This document shows positions 1 to 48,156 of a stretch of DNA of 64,000 nucleotides, in pieces (the first letter of the stretch is position 1; each line of letters opens with the position of its first letter). The stretch covers positions 1,604 through 65,603 of the forward strand of contig CAIRHC010000010.1 in NCBI GenBank assembly GCA_903878275.1, given 5' to 3'. The notes beneath the pieces were generated by a model, which was not told where the DNA came from, searched no databases, and worked only from the letters and a program-made list of their open reading frames with translations. The DNA is from Candidatus Vogelbacteria bacterium (GTDB taxonomy: Bacteria > Patescibacteriota > Minisyncoccia > Phycocordibacterales > XYD1-FULL-46-19). The position numbers were made by a program, and so were the translations under genes.

Positions 1-2985
1 TTCCGCCAAAAATGGGGTGACTGGTGCCAAGACTTTAGCAATTTCTAATAAAACAAAACGAGTAACCGCTGAAACATTTTTCTTGTCATTTTCGTCGTCA
101 CTTTTAAAACGATCTCGCGAACGACGTAGATACCAAGTGGAGAGGTCATCAATAAACTCATCGATCGGGCGAAGGGCACGGTCTAGTTCATATTTATCAA
201 AAGATTCGGTCACCTGAATAATAGTTTCGCCAAGCCGGACCAAAATCCACTTGTCTAAAATATTGGAAATTTCCGTCGGTTTAAGTTCGAGATTTTTATT
301 TTCAGCTTCCACATAGGTCTGATAGAAAGAACAAACATTTTGCAAACGCATTATAATTTTCCGCTGAATTTCTGCCACGCCCTTTTCGGAAAAATTTAAA
401 TCTTCTGCCCGCACTACCGGTAAAGACATCAAATAAAAGCGGAGAGCGTCAGCCCCATAACGATCGACGACCAGTGAGAGCTCTGGAAAATTCCGCAAGC
501 TCTTTGACATTTTTTGACCATTTTCTGCAAGAAGAAAGCCATTAACAACCACATTTTTAAACGGACTTTCACCAAAAAGCGCGGTGCCCAGAACAATTAG
601 ACTATAAAACCAACCGCGAGTTTGATCCAAACCTTCGGCGATAAAATCTGCCGGCCAACCTTTCTTCTGATCCGGATCAAAATTATCTTTTTTAAACGGA
701 TAATGATCTTGCGCATAAGGCATCGCACCTGATTCAAACCAGCAGTCAAACACATCTGGAATTCTTTTCATTTCACCACCGCAAGCACAAGCAAAAGTAA
801 CCTGATCAATAAACGGTCGATGCACGTCAAGTTCAAAATCCTGATTGCACGGCAATGGTGAAAAAATTAGTTCACGCGATTCGCCGTTTTTTAATTGACC
901 ATCCCAGTGAATAGTTTTTGATAATTCTCGGGCGGTTTTACCAGCCGAGCCAGCAAACATCATCAAGATTGGAAAACCGTGTGCCACAATCAGAATATTT
1001 TTGTTTTGATATTTTTGTTCCAATTCGTACAACAAACTCATCACGCGTTTTTTAACGTTCGCACCGGTTTCACCATTTTCGTACTGACGATAAATTTTAT
1101 CGTAGATCGAATTTTCTTTTTGGTATTCGCGCCATTCTTTGCCGTCATAAGTGCCAACATTTATTTCGCGCAAACGCTCATCAAAAATTACTTGCTCGTC
1201 AGTCAAACCAAGTTTTTCTTTAACAATCTTCACCGTTTCTTTGGTTCGGCGAAAATCGGAAGAAATTATTAAATCAATTTTTTGCTTGGCAAGCTCTTCC
1301 GCTTCCGCCATTACTTCATTTTCGCCCAAGTCGGTCAAACCATCTTTGGCCAAATCAAGACAATTGACCCGACCTTCGACATTGTTGATCGCCTGTCCGT
1401 GACGCATCGCAATATATTTGTTACCAGTTTTTTTAGATAGACGACGAATATCATCGAGAGAGCCAATTACCTCTTTTTTATCGCAACTAGCACATTTCCA
1501 AACCGGAATCGGCGCACCCCAGTAGCGCGTCCGAGAAATCGCCCAGTCACGCGCGCCTTCGAGCCAATTGCCGAAACGTCCTTCTTTGATATTTTCCGGC
1601 ACCCAATTTGTTTTCAAATTATTCGCCACCAACTTATCTTTAAAATCAGTCACTTTCACAAACCAAGAAGAAGCTGCATAATTTAAAAGTGGCGTGGCAC
1701 AACGCCAACAATGTGGGTAAGAGTGAATTATTTTTTCTTTCGCAAACAACGTACCTTTGCCCGCCAAAAATTTAATTATTTCAATGTCGGCTTGTTGCGG
1801 ATTTTCAATCGGCTTTACTTTTTGTCCAGCAAAATCTTTAACCTCTGGTTTAAATTCACCATTCATTGCCACGTGCTGGATAAACGGCAATTTTTCTTTT
1901 ACACCAAGCGCCATATCGACTTCACCAAATGCCGGTGCAATATGCACAATCCCCGTCCCGCTTTCGGTCGTCACAAAATCGGCTGGGTAAATCTGCCAAC
2001 CACGTTCTTTGTTTTCTATTTTTTCATCATTCAAATAATAATCAAAAACTGGTTTGTATTTTTTACCGACTAGCTCTTGCCCGGAAATCTTTTTTTCTTC
2101 TGTAAAATTATTTTGTTCCATTTTGTTTAAAATCCATGGAACCCTTTCTGTCGCTACAATATATTTACCGCTCTTTAAAGATAATTCTCCATCTTTTATT
2201 CCTCTGCCCAAATCTGTATTATTTTGTAGAATTGAATAACTTATTTCAGGATTGACTGCCAATGCCACATTACCGGGCAAAGTCCACGGCGTCGTCGTCC
2301 ACGCCAAAACAAAAGTTCCCGGTTCGTCAACAAGTTCAAATTTTACCGTCACCGAAATATCCGTAATATCTTTGTAGCCTTGAGTTACTTCAAAATTGGA
2401 TAAGGTCGTCTCGCAACGAGGGCAAAGATGCATTGCTTTGTAACCTTCGTAAACTAAACCCTTGTCGGACAAATTCTTAAAAATCCACCAGACCGTTTCC
2501 GAATAGCTCGGATCCATTGTCCGGTAATCGTCTTCCATATCCACAAAACGTCCGAGTCTTGGCACAATTTTTCGCCAGTCATCAGCATAACGTAAGACAC
2601 TATCTTTGGCTTTTTGGTTGAAATTTTCAACACCGTAATCTTCGATATCTTTTTTGGTTTTTAAACCAAGTTCTTTTTCAATTAAATTTTCCACTGGCAG
2701 ACCGTGACAATCCCAACCCCAACGCCGACGGACATAAAAACCCTGCATCGTTTTGTAGCGAGGAATGACGTCTTTGATCGTGCCAGCGGTCAAATGACCA
2801 TAGTGAGGTAGCCCAGTCGCAAAGGGCGGACCATCATAAAAAGTAAAGGAACCTTTTGTTGATCCACTGATTAGTGACTTTTCTAGCGATTGCTCAAAAA
2901 TCTTATTCTCTTGCCAAAATTTTAGAATTTCTTCCTCGCGCTTAGCAATTTCTGATTTTTGCCCTTCATTTTCTTCAAGCGACAT
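1..2985 (-). CDS. ileS: Isoleucyl-tRNA synthetase, type 2. The N-terminal ~995 aa are present; the C-terminus lies beyond the window start. It carries an in-frame inserted PGAM-like domain.
   Basis: Manual minus-strand translation from ATG at 2985 gives MSLEENEGQKSEIAKREEEILKFWQENKIF... Class-I IleRS motifs are present: PPFATGLPHYGH (HIGH), TTTPWTLPGN (editing domain), YPHCWRCATP, DWAISRTRYWGAPIPVW, DVHRPFID, DVFDCWFESG, GQKMSKS. The ORF is open to position 1. It is absent from the ORF track because it is truncated by the window edge. Confidence 0.93.
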   Translation of the reverse strand, partial: MSLEENEGQKSEIAKREEEILKFWQENKIFEQSLEKSLISGSTKGSFTFYDGPPFATGLPHYGHLTAGTIKDVIPRYKTMQGFYVRRRWGWDCHGLPVENLIEKELGLKTKKDIEDYGVENFNQKAKDSVLRYADDWRKIVPRLGRFVDMEDDYRTMDPSYSETVWWIFKNLSDKGLVYEGYKAMHLCPRCETTLSNFEVTQGYKDITDISVTVKFELVDEPGTFVLAWTTTPWTLPGNVALAVNPEISYSILQNNTDLGRGIKDGELSLKSGKYIVATERVPWILNKMEQNNFTEEKKISGQELVGKKYKPVFDYYLNDEKIENKERGWQIYPADFVTTESGTGIVHIAPAFGEVDMALGVKEKLPFIQHVAMNGEFKPEVKDFAGQKVKPIENPQQADIEIIKFLAGKGTLFAKEKIIHSYPHCWRCATPLLNYAASSWFVKVTDFKDKLVANNLKTNWVPENIKEGRFGNWLEGARDWAISRTRYWGAPIPVWKCASCDKKEVIGSLDDIRRLSKKTGNKYIAMRHGQAINNVEGRVNCLDLAKDGLTDLGENEVMAEAEELAKQKIDLIISSDFRRTKETVKIVKEKLGLTDEQVIFDERLREINVGTYDGKEWREYQKENSIYDKIYRQYENGETGANVKKRVMSLLYELEQKYQNKNILIVAHGFPILMMFAGSAGKTARELSKTIHWDGQLKNGESRELIFSPLPCNQDFELDVHRPFIDQVTFACACGGEMKRIPDVFDCWFESGAMPYAQDHYPFKKDNFDPDQKKGWPADFIAEGLDQTRGWFYSLIVLGTALFGESPFKNVVVNGFLLAENGQKMSKSLRNFPELSLVVDRYGADALRFYLMSLPVVRAEDLNFSEKGVAEIQRKIIMRLQNVCSFYQTYVEAENKNLELKPTEISNILDKWILVRLGETIIQVTESFDKYELDRALRPIDEFIDDLSTWYLRRSRDRFKSDDENDKKNVSAVTRFVLLEIAKVLAPVTPFLAE
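846..1425 (-). other. Histidine phosphatase (phosphoglycerate-mutase-like) domain, ~190 aa, inserted inside IleRS between the IGS..L segment and the DxHRPxID motif
   Basis: Translated insert reads NKYIAMRHGQAINNVEGRVNCLDLAKDG...SDFRRTKETV...ERLREINVGTYDGKEW...ILIVAHGFPILM. The RHG and AHG catalytic His motifs and an SxxRRxxET block are typical of the PGAM/histidine-phosphatase superfamily. The insert is flanked by IleRS WKCASCDKKEVIGSLDDI upstream and SPLPCNQDFELDVHRPFIDQVTFACACGG downstream. Confidence 0.75.
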
Positions 2986-3091
2986 TATTATAATTTACCG
3001 TAAAATACGGATATTTACAATATCGCTCGAGTTTGATAATAATACAAATAGAGAGGAAATTGTTCCGATCTCAAAATAAGGAGAAAAAGTA

Positions 3092-3301
3092 ATGATAAAC
3101 AAAGAAGGTTCTGGGTTGTCTTTTGTCGACAGCAATACTGGGCGAATTTTTCTGACTATCTCTCGTTATGATATAAAGGGAACAGCTAATCCGCCGAAGT
3201 ACATAAAAATAACGGATGCTATCGGTCGCCAGCACTACGCAAACGACAACCACGAAGAATATCACGTCTTCGACAAAATCTTAACCAGTAAAGGTTTGTA
3301 A
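3092..3301 (+). CDS. Hypothetical small protein (69 aa)
   Basis: ORF with Shine-Dalgarno AAGGAGAAAAAG ending 5 nt before the ATG. It is immediately followed by a GC-palindrome terminator. No recognisable motif. Confidence 0.5.
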   Translation: MINKEGSGLSFVDSNTGRIFLTISRYDIKGTANPPKYIKITDAIGRQHYANDNHEEYHVFDKILTSKGL

Positions 3302-3318
3302 CAAAACAGCGGTTTCTA

Positions 3319-3356
3319 CCCCGCGAGCGCAAGCGCTCGCGGGGCTTTATTTTTGG
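3319..3356 (+). terminator. Rho-independent terminator: 26-nt palindrome CCCCGCGAGCGCAAGCGCTCGCGGGG followed by CTTTATTTTT
   Basis: Perfect 12-bp GC stem plus U-tract directly after the stop of the 3092..3301 ORF. An identical palindrome recurs at 30064-30089. Confidence 0.8.
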
Positions 3357-3424
3357 CTTTACTAAATAATTTTGGTATGTTAGAAATAAATCGGAAATAT
3401 AAAAATAGAAAGGAGGTGATTTTT

Positions 3425-3619
3425 GTGGAACTAATAGTTACCCGCGAAGGTGACAACGAAATCCATATTTACGAGGATATCGGAACAGAAGCTATCATTC
3501 GTCGGGAAAAAAATAAGATAATCCTAACGATGTGGCCAGCCGATCCTTTGGTAATTAGGAAGAATGAACCACTGTATAAACATTTCAAAGCGATTTTAGA
3601 TGATCCCGAAATCGGCTAA
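3425..3619 (+). CDS. Hypothetical small protein (~64 aa from a GTG start; the track ORF starts earlier at 3353)
   Basis: Strong SD GAAAGGAGGTGA 7 nt upstream of GTG at 3425. A hairpin terminator follows. There is weak C-terminal similarity to the preceding small ORF (HVFDKIL vs KHFKAIL). Confidence 0.45.
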   Translation: MELIVTREGDNEIHIYEDIGTEAIIRREKNKIILTMWPADPLVIRKNEPLYKHFKAILDDPEIG

Positions 3620-3632
3620 ATTGCAATTTCAT

Positions 3633-3672
3633 CCCACACGAGCGCTTGCGCTCGTGTGGGATTTATTTTAAA
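3633..3672 (+). terminator. Rho-independent terminator CCCACACGAGCGC-TT-GCGCTCGTGTGGG plus ATTTATTTT
   Basis: 13-bp perfect stem plus T-run. It sits between convergent genes: the small ORF on + and argS on -. Confidence 0.75.
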
Positions 3673-3674
3673 TT

Positions 3675-5411
3675 TTACATTTTTTCCAAAACCGGAATCG
3701 CCAAGATATTCAAACCGTTTTTCAAAACAATCGCCGTTGCTTTCGCCAGAGTCAAGCGTGAGGCTTCTTCATCACTGCCGATAATTTTATTTTGCGCATA
3801 AAAAGAATTGAAGGCACCAGCGATACTTATTAAATAAGAGACTAGTGTTTGCGGCGAAAGATTGTTGTAAGATTTTTCGATAATCTCTGGTAACAAATAA
3901 AGTTGTCGTGCCAAAATCGAACTGGCTTCTTCTGGCGATATTTCATCCCCAACCTCTTTCCCTTGTTCCGAGGCTTTTAATATTACTGAAAAAATTCTAG
4001 CATAAGTATATTGCAAATAAGGACCGGAATCACCTTCAAAAGATAGCGATTTAGCAAAATCAAAAATAATATCTTGCCCTGGTGATTGTTTTAAGATCGA
4101 ATACTTCAACGCCCCGACCGCCACTTTTTCCGCAATCTGCTTTTTCTCATCAATCGACATTTCTTGCCCAACCATTTTTTCTAAAACTTTTTCGCCCACC
4201 TCGCCGATCAGATTCTTTGCGGTAATCACATCGCCAGTGCGCGAAGACATTTTTCCAGTCGGCAAACGCAACATTCCGTGGGCGATATGTTTAGTTTTTT
4301 CGGCAACTTCTGGCAAAATTTGTTCTAAGGCTTTCAACATCACCCGAAAATATTCTTTTTGTTCTTCAGCAGTAATGGAAATTGATAAATCAAATGGGTA
4401 TTTTTCCAATTTAATTTTTGCCAAACCTAAATCTTTCGCCTCATAAGTCGGCAAACCTTCATTGTTTATAAAAACCCGTGTATGCAAAGACACATCGAAC
4501 AAGTCACCCCTAAAAACCACCGCCCCATCGCTTTTTTCAAACACACCACTCGCCAGACCATCTTCGACAAGCTTCTGCCCGACCGCCCAAGTTTCACTTT
4601 CAAAGAAATAATAATCAAACGCTTTCCCCTCTTTTTCGTTGTGGTTTGTGCCGAGCAGTTTATAAATAGTTTCAAAATAATCCAAACTCCACTCACGACC
4701 TAAGTCGTAAAGCTGGTTGATATGGTCGTCGTTTCGTTTGTAAACCTTTTTATTTAAAATAGTTATGCCTTCTTTGGCTTCTTGATTGTTGTCAAAATCA
4801 TAAGCACCTAGAGCGTAACACTGTCCAAGATAAGCCACTTTTTCTAGCAGATTTGCTTCTCGATCAGGCTGTTCATTTTCTTTGCGCACCATTCCCCATA
4901 AAGTTTTCGCCACATGCATTCCGACATCACCCTGATAACAAGCTCGCTTGACCTCTGCCCCACTGGCTTCAATGATTCGCGAAAGAGTTTCGCCGATTGT
5001 ATTATTCATCAAATGCCCAACATGAAAAAGCTTAAACGGATTTGGATCGGTGTATTCCACCATTACTTTTTGACCAACCAACAAATCATTGTGACCAAAA
5101 CTATCACCCGTCATTAAAATTTCTTTCAAGTTCTCGATAAAAAAGTTTTTTGACAAAGTAAAATTGATAAAACCAGGACCCGCCACATAAACCTCTTCGA
5201 GATTTTCATTTTTGACACTCAAAATTTTGTCCTTAATTTTTTCTGCCAGTTTTACTGCGTCTTCACTATTTTTTTGCGCCAAAACCAACGCGATGTTGGT
5301 CGAAAAATCACCAAAAGTTAATTCGGGATGAAAAAGCTCAATTTTTTCTGCCGACAAACCGATTTCCTCAACTGAACTCGCGATTAAATTAGACAATAGA
5401 TTTTTGATCAT
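3675..5411 (-). CDS. argS: Arginyl-tRNA synthetase
   Basis: The translation has an ArgRS-like N-terminus (MIKNLLSNLIASSVEEIGLSAEKIELFHPE...), HVGH class-I motif, GKMSSRTG and a C-terminal ...LEKM. The first ATG is at 5411. The track ORF uses an upstream TTG at 5450 as an alternative start. Confidence 0.9.
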   Translation of the reverse strand: MIKNLLSNLIASSVEEIGLSAEKIELFHPELTFGDFSTNIALVLAQKNSEDAVKLAEKIKDKILSVKNENLEEVYVAGPGFINFTLSKNFFIENLKEILMTGDSFGHNDLLVGQKVMVEYTDPNPFKLFHVGHLMNNTIGETLSRIIEASGAEVKRACYQGDVGMHVAKTLWGMVRKENEQPDREANLLEKVAYLGQCYALGAYDFDNNQEAKEGITILNKKVYKRNDDHINQLYDLGREWSLDYFETIYKLLGTNHNEKEGKAFDYYFFESETWAVGQKLVEDGLASGVFEKSDGAVVFRGDLFDVSLHTRVFINNEGLPTYEAKDLGLAKIKLEKYPFDLSISITAEEQKEYFRVMLKALEQILPEVAEKTKHIAHGMLRLPTGKMSSRTGDVITAKNLIGEVGEKVLEKMVGQEMSIDEKKQIAEKVAVGALKYSILKQSPGQDIIFDFAKSLSFEGDSGPYLQYTYARIFSVILKASEQGKEVGDEISPEEASSILARQLYLLPEIIEKSYNNLSPQTLVSYLISIAGAFNSFYAQNKIIGSDEEASRLTLAKATAIVLKNGLNILAIPVLEKM

Positions 5412-34645: not shown

Positions 34646-34770
34646 TAAATTTATGGTAGTGTTTATCTATCCTTTCCTCTCGCCCTAAAATGTTTTGAGG
34701 ACAAAACATCAAGGGTAAATCGTTCAATGGAGGGGTGGTGTACTTTTAAATTTTGATTAGAAATATTAAA

Positions 34771-37773: not shown

Positions 37774-38694
37774 ATGCCCGAACTACCAGAAGTTGAGACA
37801 ATCAAACGAGAACTAGCGAAAGTTTTAATCAGTAAAAAAATAAAATCAGCTGAAGTTTTTTGGTATAAAACAGTCGCCCCCTTGTCACCGCCCGAATTTT
37901 CGAAACAAACAAAAAATAAGGTGGTCTCGTCTCTCGAACGTCAGGCAAAGATTTTGATTATAAATTTCAGTGGTACAACATCGCTCGCTATTCATCTTAA
38001 AATGACCGGACAGCTAATATACGTTGCAAACAAAAGGCCACTGGCATCGAAACTTAGTTTCGATAAAAACATAATATCAAGGACTCCCCTTGATATTATT
38101 GCTGGTGGTCACCCTAATAGCCAGATGACAGAGAAACAACCGTCAAAATATACAAGACTTATTTTTGAATTTACCGATGGTTCACATTTGTATTTCAATG
38201 ATCTGCGAAAATTCGGCTGGGTCAGGCTCGTCGATGATTCCCAACTTAAAGATTTGACTAGGCACATCGGCGTCGAACCGCTTTCAAAAATTTTTACCGA
38301 CCAAGTGCTAATTGATATTTTTAAAAAATATCCCAATCGCACCGTAAAACAAATCTTAATGGATCAAACCTTGATTGCCGGCATCGGAAATATCTATTGC
38401 GATGAAGCTTGTTTTATTGCCAAAATTTTACCGACCAGAAAATCAAGTGCGACGAAATCAAACCAAATTAAAAAATTAAGAGAATCGATTGTCGCCGTTT
38501 TAAAACTCTCGATTCAGAAAAAAGGAACATCGTCTCGCAATTATCGTCGTTCAAATGGCGAACCCGGCGGTTTTGTCCCCCACCTCAATGTCTATGGTCG
38601 TACCAGTGAACCTTGTAAAATTTGCGGCCAAAAAATTAAAAAAATAAAACACGCCGGACGAGGAACACACTTTTGTGATCGTTGCCAGAAATAA
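37774..38694 (+). CDS. mutM: Formamidopyrimidine-DNA glycosylase
   Basis: MPELPEVE N-terminus (catalytic Pro2/Glu3), LKMTGQL, and a C-terminal zinc finger CKICGQKIKKIKHAGRGTHFCDRCQ. A ~60-aa internal insertion relative to the E. coli enzyme. Confidence 0.9.
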   Translation: MPELPEVETIKRELAKVLISKKIKSAEVFWYKTVAPLSPPEFSKQTKNKVVSSLERQAKILIINFSGTTSLAIHLKMTGQLIYVANKRPLASKLSFDKNIISRTPLDIIAGGHPNSQMTEKQPSKYTRLIFEFTDGSHLYFNDLRKFGWVRLVDDSQLKDLTRHIGVEPLSKIFTDQVLIDIFKKYPNRTVKQILMDQTLIAGIGNIYCDEACFIAKILPTRKSSATKSNQIKKLRESIVAVLKLSIQKKGTSSRNYRRSNGEPGGFVPHLNVYGRTSEPCKICGQKIKKIKHAGRGTHFCDRCQK

Positions 38695-38825
38695 AAAATT
38701 ACGCTAGTCTTTGTTTAGGCCATCACAGCCTGCCAAAAGGTGAAGATGTTTCTGGTGGGAAACATTTTGAGGTTGCCAGAGTAGTGGCGAGCGAAAAAGG
38801 CACCGATTCAGTGATGGCCTTTTTC

Positions 38826-38856
38826 TTTGCAAAAAATTTAAATCTTTGATAGAAAT
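38826..38856 (+). promoter_or_regulatory. Candidate sigma-70-type promoter TTGCAA-N17-TAGAAAT
   Basis: Read directly in an intergenic region. It precedes a strong SD plus a 6-codon ORF (MNAGSQ*). Confidence 0.35.
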
Positions 38857-39115
38857 ATCTTTGGGTAAGGAGAAAATATGAATGCTGGTAGCCAGTAATC
38901 GTACAAGCTACGTAGGTTGGCCACAATATAGGGCACACGTGTCAGGTGGCTCCGCTAACTCTGACAAAAACCTCTTCGAGCAACAAGACAAGTTGGTATT
39001 AGCGACCAACAAAGCTCCGGCCGAACAGGATACCCCTGAAGATCTTTCGGAAGAGATCCTTCATTCTCCCCACCCCGCACCCAAGCGCCGTCTCCCACGG
39101 CGCTTTTTTTTATTT
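38857..39115 (+). ncRNA. Candidate non-coding or leader transcript of unknown class
   Basis: A ~415-nt non-coding gap between mutM and the holin-like gene. Contains a 10-bp long-range stem GGCCATCAC...GTGATGGCC at 38719-38821, a candidate promoter, a perfect SD with a 6-aa ORF, and a strong plus-strand terminator at 39083-39115. The only long ORF (38882..39178) reads through that terminator and into the opposite-strand gene. Confidence 0.3.
39083..39115 (+). terminator. Rho-independent terminator AGCGCCGT-CTCCC-ACGGCGCT plus TTTTTTTTATTT
   Basis: 8-bp GC stem plus U8. Plus strand only. Confidence 0.75.
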
Positions 39116-39457
39116 CTTAGCACTTTTAAATATCCAACCCAGCAGAGCATTAATGATTGCCAAGACAACACTAAATAATAAAGCGGTCCAAAAACTAGCC
39201 ACGGAAAAACCGGGAATAAACCATGCAACAAAAAGGACAAGCCCGGCATTAATAATAAAAGTAAAAAGACCGAGTGTCAGAATAGTTATCGGCAAAGTTA
39301 AAATAATCAAGATCGGTCGAAGGATAGCGTTGACTACACCGAGAGCCAAAGCGACCAGAAGTGCTGTGGTAAAACTAGCGATGTGAACACCGCTGATTAA
39401 ATAAGCGGCACAAAGAATTGCTAAAGTAGAGAGAAGCCAATTGATTAATATTTTCAT
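39110..39457 (-). CDS. Membrane protein of the phage-holin-4 / DUF360 (YvlD-like) family
   Basis: 115 aa with four TM helices. ...RPILIILTLPITILTLGLFTFIINAGLVLFVAWFIPGF... is typical of PF04020. Confidence 0.65.
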   Translation of the reverse strand: MKILINWLLSTLAILCAAYLISGVHIASFTTALLVALALGVVNAILRPILIILTLPITILTLGLFTFIINAGLVLFVAWFIPGFSVASFWTALLFSVVLAIINALLGWIFKSAKK

Positions 39458-47247: not shown

Positions 47248-47844
47248 TTATCGGCGATGGTCGCCGTGCCCCTGCCCACCAACTTGGTGGTTTTGGTGGT
47301 TTCCGCCACCTCCACCATTTTGCCGGTGGTTTTGGCTGGAGCGGTTTTGCGCGTCACGCCGGGCTTGGTCAGCCCGGTTTTGTGCGTCGCGCATTTGCTG
47401 GTCTGCGCGATTTTGGGCGTCGCGGACCATTTGGTCAGCCCGGTTTTGTGCGTCGCGCTGGGCTTGTTCACGACGATTTCGCTCGTCGCGATAAGCTTGT
47501 TCGTGACGAAGCTGTTCGTCACGACGCTGCTGTTCGCAACGCAACTGGTAGTCGCGATCAGGCACTTCCGTGTAAACCGGAACCGGTGTTACAACGACTG
47601 GGTCGCTGTAAACAACTTCCCGCCGAACAACAACCGGTGATGACTGCTGAACAATGACAGGTGTCCGTTCAACAATCACCGGCGGATTAATGATCGCCGA
47701 GGTGATTACCGCAGCTCCCAAAACCCCCAATCCCACACCGACCGCGATGTCGCGGTCTTTATGTCCATGACCAGCTTCTGCACTTGTCGCAAAAACCAGC
47801 GCCAACGCAATAAAAACAACAATGAATAAATTACTCTTCATAAC
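47248..47844 (-). CDS. Secreted low-complexity repeat protein
   Basis: Signal peptide MKSNLFIVVFIALALVFATSAEA. Four tandem RDAQNRADQ-type 11-aa repeats. Gln/Arg-rich. His/Gly-rich C-terminus NGGGGGNHQNHQVGGQGHGDHRR. The DNA is GC-rich with visible tandem repeats. Overlapping track ORFs in other frames are judged spurious. Confidence 0.6.
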   Translation of the reverse strand, partial: VMKSNLFIVVFIALALVFATSAEAGHGHKDRDIAVGVGLGVLGAAVITSAIINPPVIVERTPVIVQQSSPVVVRREVVYSDPVVVTPVPVYTEVPDRDYQLRCEQQRRDEQLRHEQAYRDERNRREQAQRDAQNRADQMVRDAQNRADQQMRDAQNRADQARRDAQNRSSQNHRQNGGGGGNHQNHQVGGQGHGDHRR

Positions 47845-48077
47845 GACCTCTTTTCTGAACCCATGGGGTTCTTGCTTTTCAGTGTTCAGGCCCAATGCCT
47901 TTATCCTCTTGTAGTATAGCAAATTATACCACGTTTGTCAATAGCTAAAAAACCTTTATTTTAAGACTTATTTTCTGGTTTTCCACAAAAAAGCCTTGGC
48001 TAATAAAAATTTTATTTTTACTCGCCCCAGCTGATTTACTACTCACTAATTAATTTTAAATTACGAAACTCTAACGA

Positions 48078-48156
48078 GTGTCATTCCCGCGAAGGCGGGA
48101 ATCCAGACTAGTTCGATAAAACCTGGATTCCCGCCTTCGCGAGAATGACAGAGTGA
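48078..48156. repeat. 27-bp inverted repeat GTCATTC(C/T)CGCGAAGGCGGGAATCCAG around a 17-nt spacer; each arm holds a CCCGC-GAAG-GCGGG hairpin
   Basis: Seen directly. One mismatch between the arms. Part of a 500-bp structure-rich intergenic region upstream of pilB. Confidence 0.7.

Follow-up and report, generated by a model that had tools for sequence, protein, structure and literature searches.

Several classes of bacterial small RNA (sRNA) and structured RNA have been described whose genes or operators resemble the locus considered here. Enterobacterial sRNAs of the DapZ/MicL type are encoded at the 3' end of a coding gene, are transcribed from a promoter within the upstream coding sequence, share the terminator of that gene and rely on Hfq. 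The Hfq-independent sRNAs of Gram-positive bacteria, of the RsaE/RoxS type, use C-rich loops against Shine-Dalgarno (SD) sequences, and the leaders of the L1, L10, L20, and S15 operons contain operators that mimic ribosomal RNA (rRNA). For the ultra-small bacteria of the Candidate Phyla Radiation (CPR), or Patescibacteria, we are aware of few publications on regulatory or structural RNAs other than the universal ones, and a literature search for structured RNAs of CPR returned nothing specific. Here, we analyzed a 415-nt gap between the stop codon of mutM and that of a convergent membrane-protein gene, which lies in a stretch of 64,000 nucleotides from a Candidatus Vogelbacteria bacterium (assembly GCA_903878275.1, contig CAIRHC010000010.1; hereafter, the window). 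The gap probably contains two tandem, independently transcribed and terminator-ended genes for structured non-coding RNAs, predicted from sequence on the + strand and termed sRNA-1 and sRNA-2 (Table 1). Both RNA families are new, lineage-specific and narrowly distributed, and neither is cataloged in Rfam, while sRNAs as such are a familiar kind of gene.

A first set of 161 mutM loci, taken from GTDB species-representative genomes and Joint Genome Institute (JGI) metagenomes and searched by single-sequence and profile nhmmer and by blastn, held no homolog of either RNA downstream of mutM, where a SpoU or holin-like gene usually follows directly. Homologs surfaced on the contigs fetched for the closest MutM proteins in a large protein collection (69-73% identity, one annotated as Candidatus Vogelbacteria). 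By nhmmer, sRNA-1 was found near mutM in three Paceibacteria/Vogelbacteria-like loci, namely L169 (1016-1136), L166 (2931-3056), and L173 (3480-3606), and sRNA-2 in L166 only (~3090-3412; nhmmer E = 2e-18 for the whole region). L166/L167, from Ca. Vogelbacteria (GCA_026395015.1), carry both RNAs and have an opposite-strand gene between mutM and sRNA-1; L169 has sRNA-1 alone, with a convergent SpoU gene immediately after it, and in L173 sRNA-1, again alone, lies ~105 nt past mutM. A profile hidden Markov model and a covariance model (R1) both recover the four sRNA-1 copies, the latter with scores of 98-113 bits, and R1 found no further convincing member in 0.95 Mb. A weak R1 hit in L075 (21.7 bits), which overlaps the end of mutM, looks like an ordinary terminator and was rejected. 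Because the first element occurs without the second, the two are read as separate transcription units. The earlier note, made from the letters of the window, had described one promoter-to-terminator unit, which stands in so far as its TTGCAA motif and its terminator bound sRNA-2, whereas the ~100-nt element in front of them reads as a gene of its own, found alone in L169 and L173. Every element listed in that note, i.e., the stem, hairpin, promoter motif, SD, mini-open reading frame (ORF), GC-rich stretch, terminator and 98-aa ORF, was found where it had been placed, and the small-RNA reading, one of several that were offered, is supported. The fold z-score of the + strand and the homologs in related genomes speak against a chance pattern.

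Promoter-like motifs are conserved at 4/4 sRNA-1 loci and 2/2 sRNA-2 loci, as judged from sequence only. Upstream of all four sRNA-1 copies, a TTGNNA hexamer is followed after a spacer of 16-18 nt by a TAnnnT hexamer, which ends 6-10 nt before an invariant GGCC, and the motif is kept whether the upstream context is the end of mutM (window and L169) or intergenic DNA (L166 and L173). This motif in 4/4 copies, together with the separate occurrence of the element, is the reason for which sRNA-1 is read as having its own promoter. The sRNA-2 motif recurs in L166 with the same two hexamers, again 17 nt apart. The nucleotide identity of sRNA-1 between the window and its relatives is 62-67% (85% between L166 and L173), which lies above the 30-50% identity of mutM four-fold degenerate sites (random expectation, 28%) and hence indicates purifying selection. 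The conservation is thus seen at a divergence at which these sites are largely randomized. The single-sequence fold z-scores of the two RNAs range from -3.4 to -4.2, and in alignment folds compared with column shuffles z was -4.0 for sRNA-1 and -3.2 for sRNA-2, with 0/200 shuffles equally stable. As stable RNAs, both would act in trans.

A number of observations weigh against this reading. Only four sequences underlie the comparisons for sRNA-1 and two those for sRNA-2, and the counts of compensated pairs were matched by column shuffles in 20/200 cases for sRNA-2 and in 35/200 in the other comparison, which is not significant; the count does not rise above the shuffles because only two to four sequences are available. 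The closing helix P1 of sRNA-1 gives no covariation, since its sequence never varies. Several helices of sRNA-2 were picked by eye, and in the MAFFT alignment the register of P5 is off by one column, which leaves only one compensatory pair there that is strictly column-consistent. Over aligned columns, the window and L166 copies of sRNA-2 are 56% identical, close to the 50% at the mutM four-fold sites of that pair, and the conservation is concentrated in two end blocks. Moreover, about half of the closest relatives are without both RNAs at the mutM locus, which means that the RNAs are dispensable or located elsewhere in those genomes; the contig of the closest relative, P0003, stops 12 nt after mutM. 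Taken together, conservation of structure is supported, while covariation is suggestive and statistically not secure. The comparison with related genomes that the earlier note had proposed has yielded compensated pairs in sRNA-2, at a count not above that of shuffles.

Table 1. Coordinates (window numbering) of predicted features in and around the gap downstream of mutM.
Feature	Position	Strand	Description
sRNA-1 putative promoter	38681-38710	+	-35 TTGCCA 38681-38686 in last mutM codons; 18-nt spacer; -10 TAGTCT 38705-38710; inferred from sequence
sRNA-1 gene	38718-38829	+	~105-110 nt; closing helix P1 and U-tract; nhmmer and covariance-model homologs, fold z-score
sRNA-1 P1	38718-38726 / 38811-38819	+	9 bp, GGCCAUCAC/GUGAUGGCC, then U5CU3 (38820-38828); first and last nine bases pair
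sRNA-1 internal hairpin	38743-38753 / 38758-38768	+	AAGAUGUUUCU-GGUG-GGAAACAUUUU, 11 bp; minimum free energy (MFE) fold
sRNA-1 23S-rRNA-like hairpin	38771-38804	+	6-bp stem GG(U)UGCC/GGCACC; 21-nt loop AGAGUAGUGGCGAGCGAAAAA
sRNA-2 promoter	38827-38855	+	-35 TTGCAA 38827-38832; 17 nt; -10 TAGAAA(T) 38850-38855(6); TG before -10
sRNA-2 gene	~38863-39113	+	~250 nt; multi-hairpin; long-range helix joins 5' end to segment just before terminator
sRNA-2 P1, 5' strand	38863-38882	+	GGGU 38863-38866; GGAGAA 38869-38874; UGAA 38879-38882
sRNA-2 P1, pairings	39072-39075; 39064-39069; 39060-39063	+	GGGU:ACCC; GGAGAA:UUCUCC; UGAA:UUCA; from fold and alignment
sRNA-2 P2	38883-38897	+	UGCUGG-UAG-CCAGUA; conserved ACAAGCUACGYAG after it; L166 U-A to C-G, one pair broken
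sRNA-2 P4	38940-38966	+	UGUCA(G)/(C)UGACA; 15-nt loop with conserved GGCUCC; L166 C-G to U-A
sRNA-2 P5	38969-39031	+	AACCU/AGGAU closes variable center; L166 equivalent UAAGC/GCUUA
sRNA-2 P7	39041-39058	+	GAUCUUU-CGGA-AGAGAUC; conserved UACCC(C/G)UGAA flank
sRNA-2 intrinsic terminator	39083-39105 + U8, to 39113	+	AAGCGCCGU-CUCCC-ACGGCGCUU; 9 bp, 6 G-C pairs; terminator scan, + strand only
6-codon ORF (MNAGSQ*)	38878-38898	+	ATG 38878, TAA 38896-38898, SD GGTAAGGAGAAAAT upstream; not a gene
98-aa ORF	38882-39178	+	spurious; passes through terminator, overlaps convergent gene

The MFE of sRNA-2 is -82.6 kcal/mol, with z = -4.2 on the + strand vs -2.4 for the reverse complement, and the + strand is favored by this better z-score as well as by conserved G-U pairs. 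From the unedited MAFFT alignment, RNAalifold predicts 41 pairs, of which 11 are compensated; compensated pairs are seen in P1b, P1c, P2, P4, P5, and P7, with one each in P2 and P4. In the closing helix, L166 differs by G-C to A-U in P1b and by U-A to C-G and A-U to G-C in P1c, and in P7 by two adjacent compensatory pairs (C-G to G-C and U-A to C-G), next to a conserved U-G pair that fits the + strand only. Rival local pairings of the MFE fold, namely UAUGA/UCGUA and an extension of P7 by UGAA/UUCA, are not kept in L166 according to a hand check of the alignment. RNAalifold offers an alternative to P2, in which GUAGC pairs with GCUAC, and homology of P4 between the window and L166 requires an indel of 2-3 nt beside a 16-nt insertion. 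The two conserved ends read UGCYGGUAGCCRG...ACAAGCUACGYAG on the 5' side and UACCCSUGAAGAUnnUUCGGAAGnnAUCCYUC on the 3' side, and the center differs between the two copies by insertions of 16, 38, and 12 nt.

This fold bears directly on the question of whether anything in the gap is translated. A gene caller has annotated the 98-aa ORF in public assemblies, and a strong SD lies 5 nt before the ATG at 38878 and 9 nt before the ATG at 38882, so that the gap could be thought to encode a protein or a six-codon leader peptide that controls read-through of the terminator. We consider both scarcely credible. In the predicted structure, the apparent SD (GGAGAA) and the UG of the ATG are the 5' strand of the sRNA-2 closing helix, and L166 has ACG in place of the mini-ORF start codon as well as an altered SD, each with a compensating change on the strand with which it pairs. 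Leader-peptide control, which the earlier note had considered, is contradicted by these changes and by the lack of any co-oriented downstream gene, the genes nearest downstream of the gap being every one on the opposite strand. Its doubts about the 98-aa ORF were well placed: among 5.8 billion clustered proteins the ORF matches only itself, it belongs to no Pfam family, and it runs through the terminator into the convergent gene. In its frame, substitutions between the window and L166 are distributed 26/34/26 by codon position and thus show no positional bias, most of the indels in the stretch (5, 16, 1, 1, 38, 12, and 5 nt) are not multiples of three and break the frame, and the homologous stretch of L166 has stop codons in every frame; these results also speak against a degenerate gene. 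A six-frame translation of the region gave nothing protein-like. A coding signal is thus absent from the gap, which corrects the annotation of a spurious 98-aa protein and illustrates that a seemingly perfect SD and ATG can belong to one strand of a helix instead of directing translation.

The sRNA-2 promoter overlaps the U-tract of sRNA-1, and a start 7-8 nt past the -10 element would fall on G38863, the first base of the sRNA-2 closing helix. A generic sigma-70 scan missed TTGCAA-N17-TAGAAA because this -10 element is without a T at position 6. The sequence TTAGAAAT, which lies 8 nt upstream of the tRNA-Arg(GCG) gene (window 34740-34770), resembles the -10 element of sRNA-2, and -10 elements of the TAGAAAT type may hence be used in this organism. 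At the 3' end, L166 has a terminator at the equivalent place with a different sequence. sRNA-2 resembles RsaE/RoxS-type sRNAs in its several hairpins, its terminator at the 3' end and its conserved C-rich segments that are left unpaired, but it is about twice as long, has a long-range helix that closes the 5' and 3' ends, and was not matched by Rfam to RsaE or any related family. We tentatively favor, at odds well short of even, that sRNA-2 would act via its conserved unpaired C-rich segments, i.e., GGCUCC in the P4 loop and UACCC(C/G) before P7, which could base-pair with target mRNAs at GGAG-type ribosome-binding sites; alternatively, sRNA-2 could bind or scaffold a protein.

The 116-nt segment that contains sRNA-1 folds with an MFE of -42.9 kcal/mol and z = -3.7 (-3.4 to -3.7 across runs). 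A 10-bp long-range stem, AGGCCAUCAC/GUGAUGGCCU (38717-38726 / 38811-38820), encloses the 11-bp internal hairpin, and P1 with the following U-tract is almost invariant in sequence across the four loci. The transcript would start ~8 nt past the promoter-like motif at the first base of P1 and would end in the U5CU3 run. In the interior, the blocks CC(U/C)GCC, GGCGA(G/A)C, and GC(G/A)AAAA(A)GGC are conserved, while the central hairpins vary between genomes, with relatives carrying different hairpins in place of 38743-38768. Like the DapZ/MicL-type sRNAs, sRNA-1 has its -35 element within the last codons of mutM (in the window and L169), and mutM transcripts and sRNA-1 would share their 3' end, because sRNA-1 ends at the sole terminator-like structure after mutM. 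There is, however, no sequence relation, sRNA-1 is detached from mutM in L166 and L173, and it is a closed and highly structured RNA instead of a seed followed by a terminator.

The proximity to mutM raises the question of whether sRNA-1 is simply the 3' untranslated region (3' UTR) or terminator of the mutM operon and sRNA-2 a non-functional insertion, e.g., a mobile-element relic or an acquired fragment, with a stability that is incidental to its GC content. Both RNAs are narrowly distributed, P1 with its U-tract would terminate mutM transcripts, the weak covariance-model match in L075 at the end of mutM resembles a plain terminator, and the slot after mutM is a variable hotspot that holds toxin-antitoxin modules and small ORFs in relatives. 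We nevertheless regard this explanation as unlikely. Between mutM and sRNA-1 there is an opposite-strand gene in L166 and a distance of ~105 nt in L173, sRNA-1 retains a promoter-like motif of its own, and its interior motifs are conserved despite the largely randomized four-fold sites of mutM. For sRNA-2, the promoter, the end domains and the helices are conserved with compensated changes. Repeats of the gap region were absent from the window, and the gap sequence had no match in phage and plasmid collections (blastn) or in viral contigs (exact-pattern scans).

The interior of sRNA-1 contains a hairpin that resembles 23S rRNA. The sole match of the gap region in the first 161 loci was the 5' domain of the 23S rRNA gene of L050 (blastn; gene confirmed by Rfam), with 22/24 identities over window 38773-38796. 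The 16-mer AGUAGUGGCGAGCGAA (38780-38795) is one base off AGUAGCGGCGAGCGAA of Escherichia coli 23S rRNA nt 230-256 and the CPR 23S motif, the best local alignment of E. coli 23S rRNA to sRNA-1 lies at these nucleotides with a score of 29-38 vs a background of 15-22, and a scan of 0.95 Mb with at most one mismatch allowed returned the motif from true 23S genes and sRNA-1 only. By hand count, the loop agrees with that of the 23S domain I hairpin at 18/21 positions; the loop of the rRNA hairpin is likewise 21 nt long, and its stem differs in sequence. This hairpin was placed near helix 13 (H13) with the help of one table of a published source (PMC2441807). L169 keeps the 23S-like motif with an internal U-G pair changed to U-A, while L166 and L173 keep UAGCGGCGAGC or AGUCGCGAGC, after which an inserted hairpin interrupts the motif. 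The resemblance is real and would stem either from mimicry or from an ancestral rRNA fragment, but the family does not preserve it uniformly. Two points are to be added here to those that weigh against the proposed genes: mimicry is not family-wide, because the inserted hairpin alters the rRNA-like loop in L166 and L173, and a competing fold in the window, UUGCCA/UGGCGA, excludes the 23S-like hairpin, so that two mutually exclusive interior folds of sRNA-1 are possible.

Given this loop, sRNA-1 could be viewed as a cis- or trans-acting regulatory element for ribosomal proteins, i.e., an rRNA-mimic operator as in ribosomal-protein leaders. It would share with these the reproduction of a conserved rRNA loop on a different, compensated stem, which in the window still pairs beneath a loop with the 18/21 match, and the U-G to U-A change inside the motif kept by L169 is in line with such a role. 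In contrast to the leaders, sRNA-1 does not lie in a 5' leader, no same-strand ribosomal-protein gene is found downstream in any locus, and the mimicry is seen in two of four members, being interrupted by the hairpin in L166 and L173; the match could also go back to an ancestral rRNA fragment or to a common bulged-G module and not to the binding of a shared protein. We therefore hold this explanation to be improbable. For sRNA-1 as a stand-alone RNA, the likeliest mode of action, which we advance with considerable reserve, would be binding of a protein through the conserved core, which in the window and L169 resembles a bulged hairpin loop of 23S rRNA domain I that is universally conserved, and the RNA may have been derived from this 23S element or serve as a decoy for it. 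A more specific scenario, in which sRNA-1 would be an exapted 23S domain I hairpin that titrates its ribosomal protein or an assembly or modification factor and sRNA-2 a co-regulated partner RNA of a new class, appears a long shot. If a decoy function were true, it would amount to RNA-based control of ribosome biogenesis in reduced-genome CPR bacteria, and a functional rRNA-like hairpin would suggest that organisms with reduced ribosomes employ RNA mimicry in their ribosome biology. Apart from this case, which alone would come as a surprise to specialists, narrowly distributed lineage-specific sRNAs are a modest addition; the locus nonetheless gives access to the RNA biology of CPR through two concrete, testable families for which promoters, termini and helices are defined.

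Stand-alone genes, paired ends and GC-rich sequence in an AT-rich genome are also features of housekeeping RNAs, i.e., 4.5S/signal recognition particle (SRP) RNA, 6S RNA, RNase P RNA, and transfer-messenger RNA (tmRNA), and one or both of the RNAs might be a highly divergent member of these that was missed by the Rfam models. The paired 5' and 3' ends and the promoter-to-terminator layout of both RNAs would agree with this, their lengths of ~110 and ~250 nt are within the range of 4.5S and of large SRP or 6S RNA, and Rfam and ARAGORN detected none of the four RNAs elsewhere in the 64-kb window. Their defining motifs are, however, absent, and we judge such an identity very unlikely. Searches with Rfam 15 of the whole window at gathering thresholds, and of 38600-39200 at E <= 10, gave no family for the gap and noise only, and at E <= 5 there was no match in the RNA elements of L169, L166, and L173. 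ARAGORN found eight tRNAs and no tmRNA in the window. The earlier note had likewise recognized none of the four RNAs, and the Rfam and ARAGORN results agree with it; a known Rfam family and a coding signature of the 98-aa ORF, either of which would have changed its reading, were both absent. For tmRNA, there was no Rfam match at E <= 10, and neither RNA nor the homologs have a GUUCRA T-loop, a T-arm or a CCA end. For SRP RNA, there was no Rfam match (E <= 10 in the window, E <= 5 in the homologs), and helix 8 with its GGAA tetraloop is absent; GGAA occurs in a single hairpin, P7, whose two compensatory pairs support a register with a CGGA loop. 6S RNA was not matched in Rfam either, and in place of the 6S rod there is a multi-branch fold, in which P2, P4, P5, and P7, the conserved helices, each form locally. 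RNase P RNA had no Rfam match, reading of the sequence revealed no GAGGAAAGUCC-like segment or P4 consensus, and ~250 nt is too short for this RNA. Finally, the distribution is patchy among close relatives, with sRNA-2 missing beside sRNA-1, an unusual pattern for essential RNAs, although other sites in those genomes could encode them.

The surroundings of the two predicted genes are as follows. mutM occupies 37774-38694 on the + strand, and the gap extends from its stop (38694) to that of the convergent gene at 39110-39457 (-), a "holin 4 TMS" membrane-protein gene of family PF04020, beyond which lies a gene for a SpoU-family methyltransferase. A gap of 415 nt is unusual because the genome is gene-dense. 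The genome belongs to the CPR/Patescibacteria, and the MutM protein of the window shares 54-68% identity with its counterparts in metagenome-assembled genomes of Paceibacterota, Vogelbacteria, and other Patescibacteria. The GC content of the region is 0.54-0.55 (200-nt windows) vs a window mean of 0.39, which is the 99th percentile and the third highest peak in the window. Three independent assemblies are 100% identical over the region, the T8 run included, so that an assembly artifact is ruled out. A 12-nt inverted repeat at the borders of the gap is explained by the Lys-stop ending of both flanking genes.

The slot between mutM and SpoU is a variable hotspot, which in different genomes holds a YafQ-like toxin with a ribbon-helix-helix (RHH) antitoxin, ORFs of 76-85 aa, the PF04020 holin-like gene, both sRNAs, or nothing (L165 3395-3872, L166 3415-3903, L171 3459-3819, and window 39110-39457). 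In two Patescibacteria contigs, L086 (3365-3500) and L088 (3420-3530), another long hairpin element lies immediately 3' of mutM (...GCGTCTGGTTTTGA...AAAGACGCGAGGACC..., with flanking arms of the AATTTGAATGTTTCTG type), which is conserved between these two contigs and has no relation to sRNA-1 or sRNA-2. ACAAGCTACG in L084 is a palindromic terminator and was rejected as a homolog. The same contig contains, at 4340-4580, a tRNA gene with two additional partial copies of its own 5' end (gccctgttagctcag) nearby, and mobile-element integration at the tRNA is possible.

Elsewhere in the window, which is otherwise gene-dense, ~1.9 kb at ~1700-3650 are without a convincing long ORF and hold short low-complexity ORFs only. 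A near-perfect inverted repeat of ~30 bp, GTCATTCCCGCGAAGGCGGGAATCCAG ... CTGGATTCCCGCCTTCGCGAGAATGAC, lies at 48078-48151 in a 500-nt intergenic region, where the only matches were to microRNA-precursor models and were taken as noise. The GC peak at 47.3-47.8 kb, considered as another RNA, was rejected, as it has no Rfam match and corresponds to a repeat-rich secreted-protein gene, which spurious opposite-strand ORFs overlap. This peak, the highest of the window (0.63), is a 224-aa ORF at 47248-47922 (-) with, as judged by eye, a signal-peptide-like N-terminus and tandem repeats of the RDAQNRADQ type.

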